A stretch of 64,000 nucleotides of DNA from Myxococcales bacterium. Its GTDB lineage: Bacteria > Myxococcota_A > Polyangia > Polyangiales > Polyangiaceae. Below are positions 4,847-61,912 of the stretch, one piece after another. The stretch is taken from positions 345,516 to 409,515 of the forward strand of contig JADKKK010000003.1 of assembly GCA_016720545.1 (NCBI GenBank), in the 5' to 3' direction. Every line of letters starts with the position of its first letter. Positions within the stretch are counted from its first letter, which is position 1. A program made the translations under genes and the position numbers. The notes under the pieces are model-generated. The model made no database searches and was not told where the DNA came from. It saw only the letters and a program-made list of their open reading frames with translations.

Positions 4847-7043
4847 TCAGTCGGACGGTTCTTGCGGCGTCGCGTCGTCTTCGGCACCTTGCCCTCGGCG
4901 GAGAACGCTGCGCAGTGGGCATCTGCCGGAAGCGGCTCTGGCCGGGCCGCGACCTCCGCGACGCGGACCACCTCTCCGGTGCTCTTGGAAGCGGTACTGC
5001 GAGCGGAACGCCGGCGCGCCCGCCTTTGGCCGACCCCTGGCCAGCGCCCGTCGCTCTGGAGGGCCCACGACCCGGCCGTGTCCTGGCTCGAGATCGAGCA
5101 TGTCCGCGCGGAGCTTCGCGCGCAGGGTGGCCCTCGATGGGGATCATCACCTCGACCCGCCGGTGAGGTTTCGCGGCATCCAGTCGGCGCTCGAGAGATA
5201 GGACCTCCTCTTTTCCGCCGTTGAAGCGGAAACACGCGACCGTGCTCAGGTACCGATCGACGATGGCGCGCCACCTCTGATGTTTTCGCTCACGTTCGGG
5301 ACACCGGGTCGCAGGCAGCAGATACCGCGAATGAGCAAGGTGATCTGCGCCTGCCTGGGAGGCGCAGTAGAGGGGCCTCGATCACGTCTTCGTCGACGAG
5401 CGAGTTCATCTTGGCCACGATGCGCGCCGGCTTCCCGTGGCGAGCCTGCTCGGCCTCCCGCGCGATGAGGCCCAGCACCCCCTCGTGGAGGCCGAGGGCG
5501 CGACGATGAGCGGGTTCCACGCGCCGGGCGCTGTAGCCGGTGAGCAGGTTGAAGAGCGACGACGCGTCTTCCCCGATGCTGGTGCGGCACGTGAGGAGCA
5601 GAAACGTCGGTGTAGTGCCTCGCGGTCCCCGGGTTGTAGGTGCCAGTCGACAGGTGCACGTACCGCCGCAGTCCGGCGCGCGCCGGACGATGAGCAGGCA
5701 CTTCGCGTGGGTCTTGAGGCCCATGAGGCCATGACCACGTACACGCCCGCTCTGCTCGAGGGTGCGGGCCCACTGGATGTTGGACTCTTCGTCGAAGCGG
5801 GCCTTCGAGCTCGACGATGGCGGTGACCTGCTTGCCCGACTCCGCGGCCCGCGCGAGCGCCTTGACGATGGAGAGTCGCCGCCGGCGCAGTAGAGGTCTG
5901 CTTGATGCCAACACGTCAGGGTCTTCGGCCGCGCGGCTGACGAGTTCGACGATCGGATCGAACGACTCGTAGGGGTGGTGAAGCAGGATGTCGCCGTCAC
6001 GGATGGCAGCGAAGATGTCCTCCGCGTCGCGCAGCCAGGGCACGGCAAGCGGCACGTCCGGCTCATCCCGCAGGTTGCGCCGCTCCTCGCGCGCGAACAG
6101 CGCGAGGGGATCGCTCACGTTCAGGACCGCCGTCGTGCGGTAGACGTCGCGCACGGGTCGAGCTTCAGGGCCTTCACCAGCTTGGAGAGCGACGCCTCGG
6201 TGTACTCTCGGACACCTCCAGCCTGACGGCGTTGCCGCGCTCGCGGCGGCGGGGCTCTCCTGCTGAATCGTCTGGAGGAGATCTTCCGCCTCCTCCTCGT
6301 CGATCTCGATGTCGAAGTTGCGTGTCACGCGGAACGCGTAGACCCCCTTCAGCCGCACCCCTGGGAAGATCATGTCGACGTGCCGCGCGACGATGTCCTC
6401 GAGCAGCACGAACGCGTGCGGCGCGACGACGCCGCGGCGCTCGGGACCAGGCCCACCATCATGAGGCGAGCAACATCGTGGGCACTTGCACGACGCCGAA
6501 GTTCACGTCGCCCGAGCCGTCGCGCGAGAACATGACGCCGAGGTTCAGGCTCTTGTTGCGCACGTGAGGAACGGGTGCCCCGGGTCGATCGCGATGGGCG
6601 TGAGGACCGGGAAGATCTCGCTGTGGAACCGCTCGTCGAGGCGGGCGAGCGCGTCCTCGGGGAGCTCCGCGGGCTTCAGCCACGCGTAGCCTTGCTCGGC
6701 CAGGGCGGGCAGGAGGTGGTGCTTCAGCACCTCGTCCTGGTGGAGCATCATCTCGTGCACTCGCTCGGAGATGCGGGTGATCTGTCGGCCGCACGCTCAT
6801 GCCGTCGGGGCGATCTCGCCGACCACGCCGGTGAGCTGCTGCTTAGGCCGGCCACCCGGACCATGAAAGAACTCGTCGAGGTTCGGGTGACGATCGCGTG
6901 GATTTCAGGCGCTCGAGGAGCGGCACGGTCTCAGTCTCGGCCTCGGCCAGCACGCGCGCGTTGAACTCGAGCCAGGACGCTCGCGGTTCCAGATAGAGGT
7001 GCGGGGCGCGCAGGTCGTCGGCCTCGCGGCTCGCCGGTGGCAT
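4847..7043 (-). pseudogene. ppk1: Polyphosphate kinase 1, at least 5 frameshifts. 3' end approximate.
   Basis: Start MPPASREADDLRAPHLYLEPRASWLEFNARVLAEAETETVPLLERLK (ATG revcomp 7041-7043). N-domain FHSEIFPVLTPIAIDPGHPF. Catalytic ...KTHAKCLLIVRR, YVHLSTGTYNP.TAR.YTD, FNLLTGYS, KMNSLVDE. C-terminus IVDRYL..FNGGKEEV...RRVEVMIPIE...LDLE. Confidence 0.85.
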
Positions 7044-13204: not shown

Positions 13205-13243
13205 CGCGGCCTCAGCTCCGTGACGCCGTGCGCTCGCGGAGCC

Positions 13244-13861
13244 TCAGCGGCGGGCGCGCTCGTAGTCGGCTGCCGCGCGCTCGACCACCGCGAGGTCGCG
13301 CGCGCTGCGTTCGGCCTCCGCCACGAGGTCGGCCGTGAACATGGTGAGCCCCCAAATGCCGTTGTCGCGCCTACGAAACGCGTACCGCGTGCCGCGCGCC
13401 GTGACGACGCTCGCGCGCTCGCCCTGCTCCTCGACCGAGACCGCGCCCGACAGATCACGCCGGAGGCGGCGGTCCCAACCGCGCTCCTTCGCGTACAGGG
13501 TGAAGACGTCCGCGCCGTCGGCCGCGGCCGCATAGCGCGCGTAGTCGCGCTCGAGGGCGCCACGCTCCCCGTCCGGATACCAGCGCCGCGCGAGGGCGAG
13601 CGCCTTCCTCCGGTTCTCTCCCACCGTGAAGCAGGCCCACTGAGCCTCGGTCTCGAGGTAGGGAAACGCCACCTGGATCTGCCCGTCGGTCAGGCCGTGG
13701 GCGATGCGTACGTACGCCCCCTCGGGGGTGCGATCCGAGGGGAAGGGCCGGTGCACTTTGGCGACGACGCCCGCCGCCACGACCGCGACGAGCACCGCGA
13801 CGAGCGCGACGCGCCGCGCGCCCGACGCACCTCGCGGTCTCGCCTCCTCGCTCGGGCCCAT
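13244..13861 (-). CDS. Hypothetical signal-anchored protein (205 aa)
   Basis: Intact ORF with N-terminal basic segment then a hydrophobic helix VALVAVLVAVVAAGVV. Protein-like composition downstream. Confidence 0.55.
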   Translation of the reverse strand: MGPSEEARPRGASGARRVALVAVLVAVVAAGVVAKVHRPFPSDRTPEGAYVRIAHGLTDGQIQVAFPYLETEAQWACFTVGENRRKALALARRWYPDGERGALERDYARYAAAADGADVFTLYAKERGWDRRLRRDLSGAVSVEEQGERASVVTARGTRYAFRRRDNGIWGLTMFTADLVAEAERSARDLAVVERAAADYERARR

Positions 13862-13954
13862 GCGCGCCCGACGCTAGCACCTTCGCGGGCGGGTCGTCCC
13901 CTGGAGGCCGCAGAGCGGTCGCGGCGCGCGGCCGGCTTCGAGTACCCTGCGACC

Positions 13955-14926
13955 TTGCCGCTCGCTCCACTGCGCACGCGTTTTGCGCCCTCGCCCACGG
14001 GGGATCTGCACCTCGGCGGGCTCCTCTGCGCGCTCGTGTCGTTCGCGCTCGCCCGCGCCTCGGGCGGCGCCTTCGTGCTGCGGATGGAGGACCTCGACGC
14101 TCCCCGAACGGTGAAGGGCAGCGCCGCCCGCATCGAGGCCGATCTCGCGCGGCTGGGTCTGGCCTGGGACGAGCCCGCGGCGGACGGCGCCGGGCTCCAT
14201 GCGCCCTACACGCAATCGGCCCGAGGCCCGCTGTACGAGGCGGCGCTGACCACGCTGGGCGAGGTCACGTACCCGTGCGACTGCTCCCGCTCCGAGCTGC
14301 TCGCGGCGAGCGCTCCACACGCGGGCGAGGACCGCGTCTACCCCGGCACCTGTCGGGAAAAAGATCCCGCGCGCGTGATGCGACGGCCACCCGCGCAGCG
14401 GCTCCGCGTCCCGGAGGGCGCGGTCGTCGAGCTCGTCGACCTCGCCGCGGGAACGCTCACGCAAGACGTCGGGCGCGAGGTGGGCGATTTCGTGCTGCGG
14501 CGTGGAGACGGCGTCTTCTCCTACCAGCTCGCCTGTGCGCTCGACGACCACGCGATGGCGATCGATCTCGTCGTCCGCGGGCGCGATCTCCTGACCTCCA
14601 CGCCCCGGCAGCTCCTGCTCGGGCGGCTCCTCGGCGCGCGCGCGGCGCCGCGCACGCTCCACGTGCCGCTGCTGGTGAACGGCTCCGGCGAGCGGCTGGC
14701 GAAGCGCACCGGCGGCATCGCGGTCCGCGAGCTGCTCGCGCGCGGCGTGCCGATGGAGGCGCTGTTCGGCGTGCTCGCCCACGCGGCGCGCCTCGCGACG
14801 ACGCCCGGCCCGCTCACGCTCGACGAGGTCGTCTCCCGCGCGGCCGCTCGCCTGCCCGCGCTGCTCCGCGGGGAGGTGCCCCTACCGGAGCGCGCGACAG
14901 TGCCCGACGCGCTCCAGGGGTGCTGA
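13955..14926 (+). CDS. gluQ: Glutamyl-Q tRNA(Asp) synthetase (YadB)
   Basis: TTG start gives MPLAPLRTRFAPSPTGDLHLGG (class I HIGH-type motif). Also YPCDCSRSE, YPGTCR and LAKR (KMSK-like). The 568-aa listed ORF is a fusion with the antisense of the upstream gene. Confidence 0.8.
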   Translation: MPLAPLRTRFAPSPTGDLHLGGLLCALVSFALARASGGAFVLRMEDLDAPRTVKGSAARIEADLARLGLAWDEPAADGAGLHAPYTQSARGPLYEAALTTLGEVTYPCDCSRSELLAASAPHAGEDRVYPGTCREKDPARVMRRPPAQRLRVPEGAVVELVDLAAGTLTQDVGREVGDFVLRRGDGVFSYQLACALDDHAMAIDLVVRGRDLLTSTPRQLLLGRLLGARAAPRTLHVPLLVNGSGERLAKRTGGIAVRELLARGVPMEALFGVLAHAARLATTPGPLTLDEVVSRAAARLPALLRGEVPLPERATVPDALQGC

Positions 14927-14936
14927 GCGGGCCGGC

Positions 14937-15097
14937 CTAGAGCGCCGAACCGCTTGATGACCGAGGATTTTCGCCGAGTTGCGAGCCGTGCGAGGCGCGA
15001 CGACGAGTCCTACTGCTGCTAGGCGAGGAGGAGCAACGAAAGTACGGCGACGTAAATCGGCGAAAAGCCGACCGAATCAAGCGGTTCGGCGCTCTAG
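14937..15097. repeat. 160-bp palindromic MITE/REP-like element with 22-bp perfect terminal inverted repeats (CTAGAGCGCCGAACCGCTTGAT / ATCAAGCGGTTCGGCGCTCTAG). Lies between convergent gluQ and the kinase gene.
   Basis: Seen directly. Internal complementarity (TTTTCGCCGA / TCGGCGAAAA). A second copy of the right half is at 55470-55548. Confidence 0.7.
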
Positions 15098-15098
15098 G

Positions 15099-16337
15099 TC
15101 AGCGGAGCCCGAGCGCTACGCCGACGACCACGCTCCCGCCGACCACGATGATCCACGCGAGCGTCCAGCCGAGCGCCCGACGCGGCGGAGTGACGGGCCG
15201 CTTCGACACGGTCTGCGACACCCGCGACCGGCTCGGGCGCTCGCGATCGGCGTCGCCCGTGCGGCGGCTATTCGGGGGGCGCGGCGAGAGCGAGGGCTCG
15301 GTGGTGCTCGCTTCGGCGGCGAACGGACCGGCGCTCGACGGCGTCGGCCCCGTGCGCTTGGTCTCGGGCACCGGCTCCTCGGGCGCCGGAGCCGGCGGGG
15401 TCTCCGGCGGGAGCGCGGCGCGCTCGGGCACGTCGTCGGGCTCGTCGGGGAAGATCTCGGCGCGCTCGAGCGAGGCCCGCATGGCGCCGGCCGACGAGTA
15501 GCGGTTGTTCGGGTCCTTCGACAGCGCGCGGAGCACGATCGCGGTCACGGCGGGCGAGAGGCCAGGCACCTTCGCCGCGGGCGAGGGCGGCGGCTCGGTG
15601 AGGTGGGCCGTGAGCACGGCGAGCGGCGTCTCCCCGCCGAAGGGAAGGGCGCCGGTGAGCATTTCGTAGAGCATCACCCCGCACGCGTAGAGATCGCACC
15701 GGCCGTCGAGCTCGTCGCCTTGGGCTTGCTCCGGAGACATGTACTCCGGCGTGCCAAACACCATGTTGAGGGTGGTGAGGTTGGTCGTCCCGGTGCCGCT
15801 GCCGCCGTTGACGATCTTCGAGAGGCCGAAGTCGACGACGGTGGCCCGCTCGGCGGCGTCGACGAGCACGTTGTGCGGCTTCAGGTCGCGGTGGATCACC
15901 CCCTGTCCGTGAGCGCACTCGAGCGCCTCGAGCACCTGCTTGGCGATGGCCACTGCGCGCGCCTCCGGGAGCTTGCCGTCTGCGATGAGTCGGTCGAGCG
16001 GCCGGCCATCGATGCGGGGCAGCGCGAGGCAGAGGAGGGGCACGCCGCCGGCCGGGTTCTCGACCTCGCCGACCTCGAGGATGCGGCACACGTGCGGCCC
16101 TTCGAGGCGGCGCAGGATGGCGCCCTCGCGCATGAAACGCCCGCGGATCTGCACCTCGCTCGCGAGGTGAGGGTGCATGACCTTGAGCGCGACGGACTCG
16201 CCGCTCGCGGTATCGCGTGCAGAATACACGACGCCCGTGCCGCCTTCGCCAAGTACGCCTTCGACCTCGTACTTGCCGAGCACGACCGCGCCCCGCCGGA
16301 GGCGCTCTTCGCTGGTGGTGCTCGCCGGGCCGTCCAT
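15099..16337 (-). CDS. Ser/Thr protein kinase with C-terminal TM anchor
   Basis: GEGGTGVVY, VALKVM, HRDLKPHNVLV, DFGLS, GTPEYMSPE. C-terminal WTLAWIIVVGGSVVVGVALGL. Confidence 0.9.
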   Translation of the reverse strand: MDGPASTTSEERLRRGAVVLGKYEVEGVLGEGGTGVVYSARDTASGESVALKVMHPHLASEVQIRGRFMREGAILRRLEGPHVCRILEVGEVENPAGGVPLLCLALPRIDGRPLDRLIADGKLPEARAVAIAKQVLEALECAHGQGVIHRDLKPHNVLVDAAERATVVDFGLSKIVNGGSGTGTTNLTTLNMVFGTPEYMSPEQAQGDELDGRCDLYACGVMLYEMLTGALPFGGETPLAVLTAHLTEPPPSPAAKVPGLSPAVTAIVLRALSKDPNNRYSSAGAMRASLERAEIFPDEPDDVPERAALPPETPPAPAPEEPVPETKRTGPTPSSAGPFAAEASTTEPSLSPRPPNSRRTGDADRERPSRSRVSQTVSKRPVTPPRRALGWTLAWIIVVGGSVVVGVALGLR

Positions 16338-41065: not shown

Positions 41066-42199
41066 ATGAGGCAGCTCGTCCAGAAGGCCCGGCGCGTCGT
41101 GGTGAAGGTGGGCTCGCGCACGCTCGCGAGCGACCGCGAGGTGTTCGGGCGGCTCGCCGACGCCGTCGCCCGCGCCCAGGCCGGCGGGCGCTCGGTCGTG
41201 CTGGTGTCGAGCGGGGCCATCGCTCTCGGCGCGAAGAAGCTCGGCTACCCTACCCGCCCCAAGGAGATGGCCAAGCTGCAGGCGGCCGCCGCGGCGGGGC
41301 AGAGCCTGCTCATGCGCGCCTACGAGGAGGCCTTCGGCGCGCGCGGACTCGCGGTCGCCCAGGTGCTGCTCACCCACGCCGATCTCGCCGATCGCGCGCG
41401 GGTCAACAACGCACGCGCGGCGCTGTCCGCGCTGCTCGACGCGCGCGCGGTGCCCGTCCTGAACGAGAACGACTCGGTCTCGGTGGAGGAGATCAAGTTC
41501 GGCGACAACGACCAGCTCTCGGCGCTGGTCGCGCCCCTCGTCGACGCGGAGCTCCTCGTGCTCTTGTCCGACATCCCGGGGCTGCTCGACGCGGAGGGCG
41601 AGCGCGTGCCCGAGGTGCGCGACATCACGAACGAGGCGATGCGCCTCGTGCGGAGCGGGAAGAGCGCCGAGGGCACGGGCGGCATGGCGAGCAAGCTCGA
41701 GGCCGCGCGCCTCGCGACGCTCACGGGCGCGCAGGTGGTCATCGCCGACGCGCGCGCGCGCGACGTGCTCGATCGCGTGCTCGCGGGCGACGACGTGGGC
41801 ACGTGGTTCGTGGCGCCCGAGAAGCGCATCTCCGCGAAGCGCGCGTGGATCGCGTTCACTCTTCGGCCGCGCGGCGCGCTCGTGCTCGACCCTGGCGCCG
41901 CCCGGGCTGTCACCGAGAAAGGCAAGAGCGTGCTCAGCGTGGGTGTGCTGGGCGTGCGCGGCGACTTCCGCGCGGGCGACGCCGTGCGCCTCTTGTCGCA
42001 CGAGGGGGTGGAGCTCGGCCGCGGCCTGTCTCGGCTCGCGGTGGAGGCGGCCACCCGCGTCGCGGGCACCAAGGCGAGCGCGCCCGTCACGCCGAAGGCG
42101 GGCGGGGGCAAGGTCGCGTCGAAGCCCGACGATGACCGCGACGTGCTCGTGCACCGCGACGAGCTCGTGGTGTTCGCGAAGGCGAGCGCCGTCGGCTAG
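41066..42199 (+). CDS. proB: Glutamate 5-kinase (with PUA domain)
   Basis: VVVKVGSRTL, VLVSSGAIALG, ENDSVSVEEIKFGDND, PUA segment. No proA adjacent. Confidence 0.9.
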   Translation: MRQLVQKARRVVVKVGSRTLASDREVFGRLADAVARAQAGGRSVVLVSSGAIALGAKKLGYPTRPKEMAKLQAAAAAGQSLLMRAYEEAFGARGLAVAQVLLTHADLADRARVNNARAALSALLDARAVPVLNENDSVSVEEIKFGDNDQLSALVAPLVDAELLVLLSDIPGLLDAEGERVPEVRDITNEAMRLVRSGKSAEGTGGMASKLEAARLATLTGAQVVIADARARDVLDRVLAGDDVGTWFVAPEKRISAKRAWIAFTLRPRGALVLDPGAARAVTEKGKSVLSVGVLGVRGDFRAGDAVRLLSHEGVELGRGLSRLAVEAATRVAGTKASAPVTPKAGGGKVASKPDDDRDVLVHRDELVVFAKASAVG

Positions 42200-42500
42200 C
42201 TAGTCCCCTGGAGTCGTGGTTCGTATCAGAAGTCCGGTCTTCGGTGTCATGCCGAGGAGCGAGGGGGTGCCCCGTTTTCGGCGGCGGCGGGCCCGTCCTC
42301 AACTCGGACGTCGTTCCGCGCGGTGGAGGCGGCGCTTTGCGCTCAGGGGACAGTGGTTTCGGGTGTGACCGCGCGAGAACGCCGACCCTCGAACATGAGT
42401 ATCCTCCCACCGCCGCCGAAAACGGGACACCCCCTCGCGCCCTTGTGGCGAAAGGCCGAGCCGCGCGACTTCTGGAAGGGATCACGCTTCCAGGGGACTA
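42196..42500. repeat. ~300-bp imperfect palindromic element between proB and the protease gene. Outer arms TAGTCCCCTGGAG / CTTCCAGGGGACTA. Inner 29-bp arms GAGCGAGGGGGTGCCCCGTTTTCGGCGGCGG / CCGCCGCCGAAAACGGGACACCCCCTCGC.
   Basis: Seen directly. Starts with GCTAGCTAG at the proB stop codon. Confidence 0.65.
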
Positions 42501-42574
42501 GGTCTGACCTCATTTTGGCGTCCTCTCGCCCCGCCGCGACTCGCGCGCGGCGCGCGAGCTGCTACATCCCTGAA

Positions 42575-43447
42575 GTGAGCCCGCTTCGCTCGCTTGGGCC
42601 TTCGACGGTCGCGAAGATCCTGACCGCGGGGAGCCTGCTCGCGCTCACCGGGTGCGCGTACCCATTCTCGGCGCTCTCGCCATTCTCGCGCACGAACGCG
42701 CGCGTCCTCGAGGAGACCTCGCTCGGCGGCGTGAGCGCGGGCAACGCGCGACCCGGCGACGCCGTGGTGCGCGTGTGGATAGGACGCGGCACCTGCTCTG
42801 GCGTGCTCGTCGCGCCGCGCGTCGTGCTGACGGCGCGGCACTGCATCACCGAGACCACCGCGAGCCGCGAGGCGACCTCGCGGCCGAAGGTGCCCGGCGC
42901 GCTCCACGTCGAGCTCGGCGGCGACTACCTCCCGTGGGGGCGCGTCGCGGTCACCGGCGTCCACGTGTGCGAAGCTTCACCGAACGAAGAGCGCGATCTC
43001 GCCGCGCTGCTCCTCGACCGGCCCGTGCCCCCCGACGTGCCGCTCTTGGCCCTCGGGAGCCCCCGCGACGACGGGCGCTACGCGGTGCTCGGGTTCGGGT
43101 CCGACGTGTGGCCCAAGACCGTGGGCGGGATCACGGCGGAGGCCAAGCGGCGGCACGTCACGCGCGGGTCCGTAAAATCCACCAGCCCCGACACGGTTAC
43201 GGTGCACGCCGCGACGCTGCACGGCGACTCGGGCGGCGCGGTGGTCGACCTCGAGACGCGCGCGCTCGTCGCCGTGGTCTCGCGCGGCGACTACGCCGAG
43301 CGGGCGATGGACAACGTGCGCTACGGCGACATCACCGTGGGCGCGCGGGTCGACCGCTGCGAGCACGCGGTGCGCGCGGCGCTGGTCGCCGCGGAGCCCG
43401 CTGGGGCCGCCAGCCGCGCGCGGCGGGTGGCGACGGTCCGCGACTGA
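42575..43447 (+). CDS. Trypsin-like (S1) serine protease lipoprotein
   Basis: Lipobox LLALTGCA. Triad context TARHC (His), DLAALLL (Asp), GDSGGAVV (Ser). Confidence 0.8.
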   Translation: MSPLRSLGPSTVAKILTAGSLLALTGCAYPFSALSPFSRTNARVLEETSLGGVSAGNARPGDAVVRVWIGRGTCSGVLVAPRVVLTARHCITETTASREATSRPKVPGALHVELGGDYLPWGRVAVTGVHVCEASPNEERDLAALLLDRPVPPDVPLLALGSPRDDGRYAVLGFGSDVWPKTVGGITAEAKRRHVTRGSVKSTSPDTVTVHAATLHGDSGGAVVDLETRALVAVVSRGDYAERAMDNVRYGDITVGARVDRCEHAVRAALVAAEPAGAASRARRVATVRD

Positions 43448-60380: not shown

Positions 60381-60829
60381 GCGCTCTAGCTAGCTAAGCT
60401 AGTCGCTGCGCTTTCGGCTCCGGGACCGCTTGCTCCGGGTCCGGCACCTCAGGCTTGGGGCCGGTCACTTTTTTCCCTTTCTCGGCCGCCTCTCGCTCCC
60501 GCTCCGCGCGCTTTGCGATGGCCTCCGCGGGCGGGCCTCACTTCCAGGTTCGCCATCGCCCGTGGTGAAGCGGTTGAAGCGGTCGCCGCGGTGGAGATCG
60601 CCGCCCACGCGGGGGACGCCACCCAAGAAGCGGCCGACCGATGCGTCGTCCTCGGGGATCGGTTGGTGGCGCTCCTCACGGGCCTCATCCGCCGCTGAGG
60701 GTTCGCGCTCGCCGCCCGCGGCTTCGGGTCGCGGTCGCGGTCGGGGGTCGGGGTCGCGGTCGGGGGTCGCGGGTCGGGGTCGCGGTCGGGTGGCGTTGGT
60801 CTTTTCCCGACACACTCCTAGCTAGAGCG
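60381..60829. mobile_element. ~450-bp MITE-like element bounded by perfect 12-bp inverted repeats CGCTCTAGCTAG / CTAGCTAGAGCG. Contains hexanucleotide (GGGTCG/CGGTCG) repeats and a small RP/DP-rich ORF (60465..60815, minus strand).
   Basis: Seen directly. Termini share GCGCTCTAG with the 14937-15097 family. Confidence 0.55.
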
Positions 60830-61736
60830 ACGTGTTCATCACCGCGCGCGTGACGGTGTCGGCCACGAGGGGGTACTTGTTCGCGCTCAAGGGCACCGGG
60901 AACGCCACCCCGGTGAGCTTGCAGCCGGCCTTCGCGCCGGCGAACTCTACCAGCCCGGTGCCGGGCGTGACATTGGAGATGAACACGTTGGCGCCGCGAT
61001 CGCCGGCGCTGGCGGTGAGCGCGAGGTTCGGGTTGAAGGAGCCCGAGTCGGCGTACTGAACCACGGCCTCCGGGTGGCCCGGGATCGTCACGACGAAGCC
61101 GCTCGCGTCGCAGGTGGGCTCGGCCCTGTTGATCACCAGGTAGAAATGGGCCTTCGCGGCGTTGTAGGTGGCGTCGAAGGACCCCATGGTCGTCTTCGCG
61201 AACACGGAGACGTCGGTGTCGGTCCGCACGCCGGGGGGGAAGTTGTAGACGACGCTCGCGCTCTTGTAGAAATCCGCGGGGTTCGTGGACGTCACGAGCA
61301 GGTAGTGGTTCACGCCAGTGGTCGGAGTGAAGCGCACGCGCGAGCCGGCGTAGGGGAGGGGCGCGCTCGTCCCCTGGCACGCGTCCACGAGCTGGATCGA
61401 GGTCTTGCCGCTGGGGTCGGTCCCGCTGTTCGCGGGGTTGAGCTTCACATCGGTCGCGCCCTTGTCGGTGCACGCGCCGGCCTCCGTAGGAGCGTCGGGC
61501 GAGGCGTCGACTGGCGGGGGTGCATCGGGCGTGGCAGCGTCCGTCGCCGTCGCTGACGCGTCGGGGGTCGGCGTGGTGGTCGTCGTCGTCGCCGTCGTCG
61601 TGGTCGTCGTGGTCGGCGCGGGGCCCGCGTCGGTCGCGGCCGGATCGCTGCTGCAGGCGCCGAGGGGCGCGAGGGGCGCGATCGCGCCGACGGCGAGGAG
61701 GGCGAGCAGCGGACGCTTCAGGGTGAAGTTGTGCAT
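60822..61736 (-). CDS. Lipoprotein with poly-Thr linker (304 aa)
   Basis: LAPLGACSS lipobox. TTTTTTTATTTTTT encoded by a (GTC)n tract. CTAGCTAG sits at both gene ends (60818, 61744). Confidence 0.6.
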   Translation of the reverse strand: MHNFTLKRPLLALLAVGAIAPLAPLGACSSDPAATDAGPAPTTTTTTTATTTTTTPTPDASATATDAATPDAPPPVDASPDAPTEAGACTDKGATDVKLNPANSGTDPSGKTSIQLVDACQGTSAPLPYAGSRVRFTPTTGVNHYLLVTSTNPADFYKSASVVYNFPPGVRTDTDVSVFAKTTMGSFDATYNAAKAHFYLVINRAEPTCDASGFVVTIPGHPEAVVQYADSGSFNPNLALTASAGDRGANVFISNVTPGTGLVEFAGAKAGCKLTGVAFPVPLSANKYPLVADTVTRAVMNTSL

Positions 61737-61912
61737 GAGGCCTAGCTAGGGGGGGGCGAGTGAAGGTGGGTACAAGCATACGCGGCCGAGGCGGAGAGGC
61801 AACCGAACATCGAGCGCCCGCGAGGAGCGGCGAACGCAGCGATGCGAGGCGGGCCGGGCGCGGCGAGCTTGGAGATTGCGCCACGCCTCGCGCGGCGCTA
61901 CGAGGTCCGGGG

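Follow-up and report, generated by a model that had tools for sequence, protein, structure and literature searches.

We describe here a hairpin element that lies between proB and a protease gene in a Myxococcales bacterium of the family Polyangiaceae. The stretch of DNA analysed, referred to below as the window, comprises 64,000 nucleotides of contig JADKKK010000003.1 (assembly GCA_016720545.1, positions 345,516 to 409,515); loci from other genomes and metagenomes are given L numbers. The proB gene (42199 being its last position, 41066-42199 on the plus strand) encodes a glutamate 5-kinase of 377 aa with the Pfam domains AA_kinase and PUA, and it is intact despite the insertion of the element behind it. 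Further downstream on the same strand is the gene for a trypsin-like (S1) lipoprotein (42575-43447; Pfam Trypsin and Trypsin_2), which starts with a GTG followed by the lipobox LALTGC. An earlier note, made from the letters of this stretch alone, had pointed to a nested hairpin of about 300 bp between the two genes and had proposed that it could be a MITE (miniature inverted-repeat transposable element), a large structured small RNA (sRNA) or a cis-regulatory RNA. The note also remarked that proB lacks its usual partner proA. This is true, as proA is not adjacent to proB, and it has no bearing on the element: relatives without the element likewise have the protease gene next to proB, and because they share this gene order the missing proA is a lineage trait.

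The whole repeat unit, with both flanking CTAGs included, occupies 42200-42501 (302 bp), its limits being those at which homology ends in other copies, and the mobile part between the flanking TAs would be 296 bp long (42203-42498). The left boundary reads G-CTAG-CTAG (42195-42203). The first CTAG of this tandem CTAGCTAG (42196-42203) contains the proB stop codon TAG (42197-42199) and the second flanks the element, so that the repeat unit starts at the stop codon as had been noted; its end at 42501 precedes the protease gene, also as noted. The left terminal inverted repeat GTCCCCTGGAGTCGTGGTTCGTATCAGAAGTC (42203-42234, plus strand) pairs with the right one (42467-42498, minus strand; reverse complement GTCCCCTGGAAGCGTGATCCCTTCCAGAAGTC). 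The outer repeat CTAGTCCCCTGGA is perfect over 13 bp (42200-42212 / 42489-42501) and extends imperfectly to 35 nt, where 28 of 35 positions, or 80%, are complementary (42200-42234 / 42467-42501). Nested inside is the core hairpin (42253-42445), whose 36-nt arms (42256-42291 / 42406-42441) are 92% complementary and lie 114 nt apart, on either side of a centre with a conserved second stem. Within these arms a stretch of 29 bp with one mismatch (42259-42287 / 42410-42438) encloses about 122 nt, and gaps of 21 and 25 nt separate the outer arms from the inner ones. The earlier description of a 13-bp outer and a 29-bp inner repeat, with about 120 bp enclosed and spacers of similar length, is thus accurate in every part.

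The predicted fold of the 302 bp is a single long imperfect hairpin with a branched centre. Its energy as RNA is -189.3 kcal/mol for the plus strand (z -8.47) and -178.7 kcal/mol for the minus strand (z -9.44), the fold of the element as single-stranded DNA has a z of -8.14, and none of 100 shuffled sequences folded as well. Structure prediction, one of the checks proposed for the element, therefore gave a fold far better than chance. Could this be a locus-specific structured RNA, that is, a large sRNA, an element of the proB 3' untranslated region or a leader of the protease messenger? The very stable predicted fold and the location between two co-oriented genes speak for such an RNA, and so do the compensatory changes which we found in the inner stem among diverged copies. 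However, both strands and the single-stranded DNA fold equally well, and the comparable folding of the two strands, although a model result, points to a palindrome at the DNA level and not to a strand-specific RNA. The search of Rfam 15 for an RNA family likewise gave no match at the gathering score in the element region or in the whole window; the best was MIR1437 with 36 bits against a required 168. No match reached the threshold for the related loci L141, L160, L106 and L016, for the 166-bp relatives or for the second hairpin of the window, all of which are described below. The sub-threshold matches were plant miRNA-precursor models, i.e. generic long hairpins. A consensus scan of 42000-42700 found no promoter-like or terminator-like sites, an intrinsic terminator being a short stem rich in G+C with a T run behind it, in accordance with the remark that the element is too long and elaborate for a simple terminator. 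The 302-bp unit also has no coding capacity: none of the open reading frames (ORFs) crossing it matches a Pfam family, and reading frames are not kept among copies.

More is learned from the same locus in other genomes. The window is identical to contig CAWKVH010000008.1 of GCA_963852875.1, with matching contigs in several wastewater assemblies, and the closest proB homologues are labelled Polyangiaceae, being 93% identical in metagenome-assembled genomes (MAGs) of this family. In L001 and L002, with proB 93% identical, and in L004-L007 (89%), proB is followed by the same protease after a spacer of only about 70 nt. These empty-site spacers of sister lineages, including those of L001 and L004, align with 42502-42574 of the window, which we take as the original proB-protease spacer, pushed 302 bp away from proB. 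As the relatives' spacer lacks the element, the 302 bp are an insertion specific to the window's species. The GTG at 42575 is conserved as the protease start in L001 and L004. In public annotation the protease gene (3330-4382 in L009/L010) begins at an ATG inside the element, at window position 42395, and encodes 350 aa. The protein is 272-287 aa long in relatives, where the conserved start corresponds to the GTG at 42575, and the first 60 aa of the public call are probably an annotation artefact made by the insertion. We also considered L003 (proB 92% identical), which has a 370-nt spacer, as another filled site and rejected it: the insert is an unrelated gene for 74 aa on the opposite strand (5189-5413) with a lipoprotein-like signal peptide. 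The proB-protease spacer appears, from these sequences, to have gained different inserts in different lineages. The element itself is no assembly artefact, because the same sequence is found in independent assemblies, complete in two (L009, 100%; L010, 99.8%) and partial in four more. Accordingly two of the six contigs with identical proB span the element, while the other four, from short-read assemblies, break 23-126 nt inside it, as assemblers break at repeats.

That the element is a repeat was seen directly when we scanned metagenomes with a pattern that is conserved in the cores of the window element and of the related locus L106. The scan returned 29 contigs, 27 of which carry window-type copies, 92-99.5% identical and mostly at contig ends. 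Copies are thus present at a minimum of 20 wastewater metagenome loci (at least 20), and there are two in GCA_963852875.1, with about 19 distinct right flanks and seven distinct left flanks. In these copies homology to the window ends sharply at 42199/42200 and 42501/42502, and the termini are conserved across all copies examined. The second copy in GCA_963852875.1 (L164 3524-3825, contig CAWKVH010000004.1) is 98.3% identical; it was reached by a six-frame ORF search with the window core, which returned a single protein. Within the 64-kb window no second copy was found, and no IS630 transposase is encoded there. A sister MAG which owns an empty proB site carries a 302-bp relative elsewhere (L106), with a core 78% identical, and additional copies of the terminal repeat at contig ends. 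A plasmid collection contained no DNA match to the element, and neither the terminal nor the core pattern matched viral contigs, which gives no hint of a phage vector. The question of uniqueness raised in the earlier note is therefore answered: the element is not unique, and of the three identities proposed there the MITE is strongly supported, whereas an sRNA and a cis-regulatory RNA are not supported. A structured RNA tied to this locus is scarcely credible when the orthologous spacer lacks the element in three related lineages, when unrelated loci hold more than 20 copies, when the abutting gene can face either end of the element, and when the second hairpin element of the window behaves alike. 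A retron msr/msd, considered for a myxobacterial host, was discarded because the element is a dispersed repeat without a neighbouring reverse transcriptase gene.

What could have dispersed it? The ends of the element, CTAG-TCCCCTGGAAGCGTGAT, match those of elements of about 1.19 kb which encode IS630-family transposases and are bounded by CTAG-TCCCCTGGAA termini (L061 1971-3163; L165, 1188 bp). The ORF of L061 (364 aa) has DDE_3 and helix-turn-helix (HTH) domains and scores 267 bits with the model NF033545, 'IS630 family transposase' (cutoff 100). L165 is a complete insertion sequence (IS) with an intact ORF of 363 aa (281.5 bits, same cutoff), and L071 is a frameshifted copy of about 1.19 kb. 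With the flanking CTA included, the right end of the element is identical to the transposase-distal end of L165 over the first 21 nt and over 29 of 33 nt overall. The left end agrees with the transposase-distal end of L165 at 26 of 33 nt, and its first 13 nt are identical to both ends of the IS in L165, L164 and L061. Beyond the ends, the comparison with L165 showed no similarity. A decayed IS copy of 1234 bp (L164 2294-3527) stands directly to the left of the second copy of the element in GCA_963852875.1 and shares its terminal CTAG. Compared with the intact L165 it has 26 gap openings, frameshifts and in-frame stop codons, which reflect either genuine decay or consensus errors that a long-read assembly made at a repeat; L165 itself was found by searching with the best-preserved segment of this copy, to which its protein is 98% identical. 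We are therefore highly confident that the nested hairpin 3' of proB is a non-coding MITE inserted at a CTAG and probably moved by an IS630-family transposase.

The family of the transposase deserves some attention. Might the element proper be TCCCC...GGGGA, with a 4-bp CTAG duplicated by a transposase of the IS5 family? MITEs of the IS5 type which duplicate CTAG are known, such as MITEPsy1 (PMC3189936), a CTAG-bounded IS5-family element adjoins related MITEs in L074 and L093, and CTAGCTAG, an octamer enriched in the window, is what would remain if such an element were lost cleanly. Against this, the termini match IS630-family ends (13-21 nt perfect, 29/33 overall), whereas the co-occurring IS5-like element has different ends, CAGGCTGCTGAA. 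Moreover, end variants differ in CTA but not in the G of GTCCCC or in the C of GGGGAC, as expected if these two bases are part of the element. We consider movement by an IS5-type enzyme very unlikely.

The published target of IS630 accords with the boundaries of the MITE. IS630 has a 2-bp target-site duplication, the TA being duplicated within a target CTAG, and nearly all insertions of ISY100 are at TA (PMC2577343 Table 1; PMC2170065). In the window the TAs within the flanking CTAGs, at 42201-42202 on the left and 42499-42500 on the right, are the putative target-site duplication. We base this on the published target and on two counts from the wider terminal family: CTA precedes 210 of 284 element ends across all loci, and among the matches listed for paired elements CTAG is found at the start in 60 of 68 and at the end in 63 of 68. 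Why should the element sit exactly at the proB stop? In a host with 72% G+C, CTAG is scarce, occurring 29 times in the window against 88.8 +/- 8.1 in shuffled sequences, a three-fold under-representation. The target is often supplied by a C followed by a TAG stop codon, which accounts for the position at proB, and insertion into C-TA-G is tolerated because TA and the first G of the element rebuild TAG. In six other independent copies a long ORF with high G+C at third codon positions likewise terminates in the TAG of the flanking CTAG (...NNC-TAG|TCCCCTGG); the gene faces the right end in four of them and the left end in two. By analogy with IS630 and ISY100, we hypothesize that a transposase supplied in trans would bind both ends of the MITE, cut it out and paste it into the TA of a CTAG, whereby TA would be duplicated. 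Insertion at a C+TAG stop would be harmless, and copies would accumulate at the 3' ends of genes. The nested hairpin would then be merely the palindromic body of the element, and proB transcripts, should they extend into it, would acquire a highly stable 3' hairpin as a side effect and not as a designed regulator.

Several observations weigh against the IS630-derived MITE or at least complicate it. No nucleotide-exact empty site was found among the relatives, as their spacers have diverged: the proB stop of the sister species has just one CTAG, and the spacer behind it differs from that of the window. The predicted empty junction is GTCGGCTAGCTAGGTCTGACC or GTCGGCTAGGTCTGACC, and the window has one CTAG more at proB than the simplest insertion model predicts. 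CTAG is palindromic, so filled sites alone cannot separate a TA duplication from a part of the inverted repeat, and a 4-bp duplication of CTAG would look identical to one of TA. The proposed check for a target-site duplication accordingly showed a flanking TA in CTAG, with any duplication hidden by the palindrome. In GCA_963852875.1 no partner IS was seen other than the broken copy in L164, and the intact L165 comes from an unlinked metagenome contig. The mobility of the MITE is inferred and not observed. Finally, a core found without IS630-type ends, with its stem kept by compensatory changes, is not what one would predict of IS ends that merely enclose junk.

This last point led to a different view of the interior. 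The core homologue at L141 4068-4260 is 77% identical and has no IS630-type ends within 150 nt; L160 (1847-1962) is the same locus. Its 36-nt arms are 92% complementary and 117 nt apart, and it lies between convergent ORFs, one of them with a PD40 repeat. It may be that the inner hairpin of 190 nt is an independent module, whether RNA, single-stranded DNA hairpin or older palindrome, which a short IS630-type MITE either captured or received as an insertion and now spreads. Besides the L141/L160 core with its same architecture, L106 suggests this, where the same core is attached to the ends through different linkers (a solo end follows the element in tandem), as do the unrelated interiors of same-ended MITEs in other phyla. 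In addition, the consensus fold of six cores has 68 pairs, 12 of which stay paired after changes on both sides. The robust compensatory changes are G-C to C-G and G-C to U-A, both common to L106 and L141, and close copies show a series of U-A, U.G and C-G in the inner stem. Several of the 'compensatory' columns, however, lie in G-run and C-run tracts where the alignment is arbitrary. The core without terminal repeats is a single copy against 27 with them, and it could have arisen from a MITE by decay with loss of the ends. Neither the six-frame search with the core nor an nhmmer search with a core profile of all collected sequence, which returned only previously found copies, gave further cores without terminal repeats, and no core locus has an Rfam match. 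A composite origin is consequently rather unlikely in our view. We would be equally cautious about the bolder form of the idea, which we regard as doubtful, that 42253-42445 is a structurally constrained module now delivered onto TAG stops by an IS630-type MITE, with the octamers CTAGCTAG as excision footprints. If true, the element would be a self-spreading cassette of 3'-end hairpins.

The window contains four CTAGCTAG octamers (42196, 60386, 60818 and 61742) against 0.09 expected, and the octamer was found at four other element junctions of the Polyangiaceae type. Three of the four sites in the window have no adjoining element, and two of these flank a minus-strand gene at about 60822-61737. 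As a speculation, the octamers may be excision footprints, either TA+G/C+TA or what is left after loss of a CTAG-duplicating element, or they may be preferred targets. A second, unrelated hairpin of 161 bp was observed at 14937-15097 of the window. It has a perfect terminal stem of 22 bp and a fold energy of -93.7 kcal/mol (z -10.3), is bounded by CTAG...CTAG and lies between the 3' ends of the convergent genes 13220-14926 (plus strand) and 15099-16337 (minus strand). Its copies in L154 (1404-1489) and L158 (1-124) are 94-99% identical, with similarity stopping exactly at 14937/15097, and judged by sequence it is probably another CTAG-targeting MITE.

Returning to the IS630-type MITE, could its copy at proB have been co-opted to terminate transcription or to stabilise the mRNA by a 3' hairpin? 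It follows the stop codon directly, and in transcripts the hairpins of other MITEs, such as Correia and ERIC, undergo processing by RNase III or alter mRNA levels (PMC10969869). Yet there is no U-tract and no terminator-like site was found, the relatives do without the element, and the preference for CTAG explains the position. We hold such a function to be unlikely. By analogy, a passive effect on proB mRNA, as a 3' hairpin or a substrate of RNase III, is possible.

The termini of this MITE are not confined to the Polyangiaceae. A genome scan with the terminal pattern CTAGTCCCCTGGANNCGTG gave at least 120 loci, and the numbers that follow refer to the matches listed. Most were from Vicinamibacterales and other Acidobacteriota, and others were MAGs labelled Polyangiaceae, Sandaracinaceae, Kofleriaceae, Myxococcaceae, Chloroflexia, Gemmatimonadota and Burkholderiales. 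We counted at least 68 facing pairs of termini, 45 exactly 166 bp apart and the rest 68-355 bp, and around the 68 pairs no direct repeats longer than CTAG were found. The interiors of same-ended MITEs differ between lineages. Differing interiors are typical of MITE families served by one transposase. The 166-bp MITE (L015-L134, e.g. L016 1435-1600) has at least 45 copies with a mean pairwise identity of 81%, several per genome in species-representative genomes of Vicinamibacterales and other Acidobacteriota, and relatives of 68-230 bp occur in MAGs of Kofleriaceae, Sandaracinaceae, Myxococcaceae and Chloroflexia. In L027, L029, L045, L117 and L123 the 166-bp MITE contains an extra hairpin of about 42 nt, CCACCCCACCGCGCA...GCGCGGCGGGGGCCCCGG, at a varying position, which looks like a smaller palindromic repeat inserting into the MITE. 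We also considered a nested insertion, with the outer 116 nt or so equal to the 111-bp MITE of Kofleriaceae, and by eye saw no likeness beyond the terminal repeat. An IS5-family element of 1303 bp (L074 6311-7613, L093 1356-2658; NF033581, 273.7 bits), bounded by CTAGCAGGCTGCTGAA...TTCAGCAGCCTGCTAG, occurs among these loci together with short derivatives (L073 5395-5511). The element and its derivatives directly abut copies of the 166-bp MITE with a CTAG in common, and comparable junctions are the IS|MITE of L164 and the MITE|solo end of L106. From these sequences, CTAG-targeting elements of two IS families would seem to pile up at each other's ends.

Is such an element known from other bacteria? 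The closest described analogue is RUP (repeat unit of pneumococcus; Oggioni and Claverys 1999, as reviewed in PMC2229807), a 107-bp MITE of Streptococcus pneumoniae with TA targets, attributed to IS630-Spn1 by the similarity of terminal repeats. RUP is, like the MITE described here, small, non-coding and TA-flanked, with many copies between genes and with terminal repeats similar to those of a resident IS630-family IS, and it tends to sit beside or inside IS, just as we observed IS|MITE and MITE|MITE junctions with a common CTAG. In comparison with RUP, our MITE is three times longer (302 against 107 bp), has an inner stem of 36 bp and a separately conserved core, targets a full CTAG rather than any TA, frequently on stop codons, and resides in a myxobacterium with 72% G+C; the two have no sequence similarity. 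The partner IS (L061/L165) is akin to IS630 of Shigella sonnei and to ISY100 of Synechocystis (IS630/Tc1/mariner) in its size of about 1.2 kb and its NF033545 transposases with HTH and DDE_3, and its boundary is the IS630 target, TA within CTAG (PMC2577343; PMC2170065). Unlike IS630 and ISY100, the MITE has no transposase and only about 33 nt per end in common with the IS, and annotated IS630-family proteins of plasmids share only about 55% identity with the partner transposases. The Correia/NEMIS elements of Neisseria are also TA-flanked and form a long hairpin in transcripts, and Correia is often co-transcribed with its neighbours (PMC2229807; PMC10969869). However, Correia carries promoters, a site for integration host factor (IHF) and demonstrated RNase III processing, whereas our promoter scan found none; its sequence is unrelated and it has no known partner IS. 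MITEPsy1 of Pseudomonas syringae, related to IS5, inserts at CTAG too (PMC3189936), but it duplicates 4 nt and has ends of the IS5 type, in contrast to the IS630-type ends found here. Repetitive extragenic palindromes and bacterial interspersed mosaic elements (REP/BIME), which are palindromes of 20-40 bp tagged GTAG or CGTC (PMC3733652), were ruled out by the unit of 302 bp and the CTAG-TCCCC termini. Searches of full-text literature gave no description of this MITE family. The testable features that define an IS630-derived MITE are present save a nucleotide-exact duplication, and mobilisation in trans by the transposase would follow by analogy with IS630 and ISY100. It is an ordinary kind of element, while the pair of MITE and IS630-family IS is itself undescribed.

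The finding does not change the current understanding of transposition and brings no new mechanism. It does matter for the genomes concerned, since the repeat breaks short-read assemblies of a Polyangiaceae species common in wastewater, adds a spurious N-terminus of 60 aa to the public call of the neighbouring protease, and could be mistaken for a regulatory RNA. The same termini on the well-conserved 166-bp MITE of many Vicinamibacterales and on other MITEs in other Myxococcota suggest that this lineage of transposase is widespread in bacteria of soil and sludge. In a genome of high G+C content, the preference for CTAG would make TAG stop codons safe landing sites and place stable hairpins at the 3' ends of genes. 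Perhaps this is a simple route by which MITEs could alter the ends of mRNAs.

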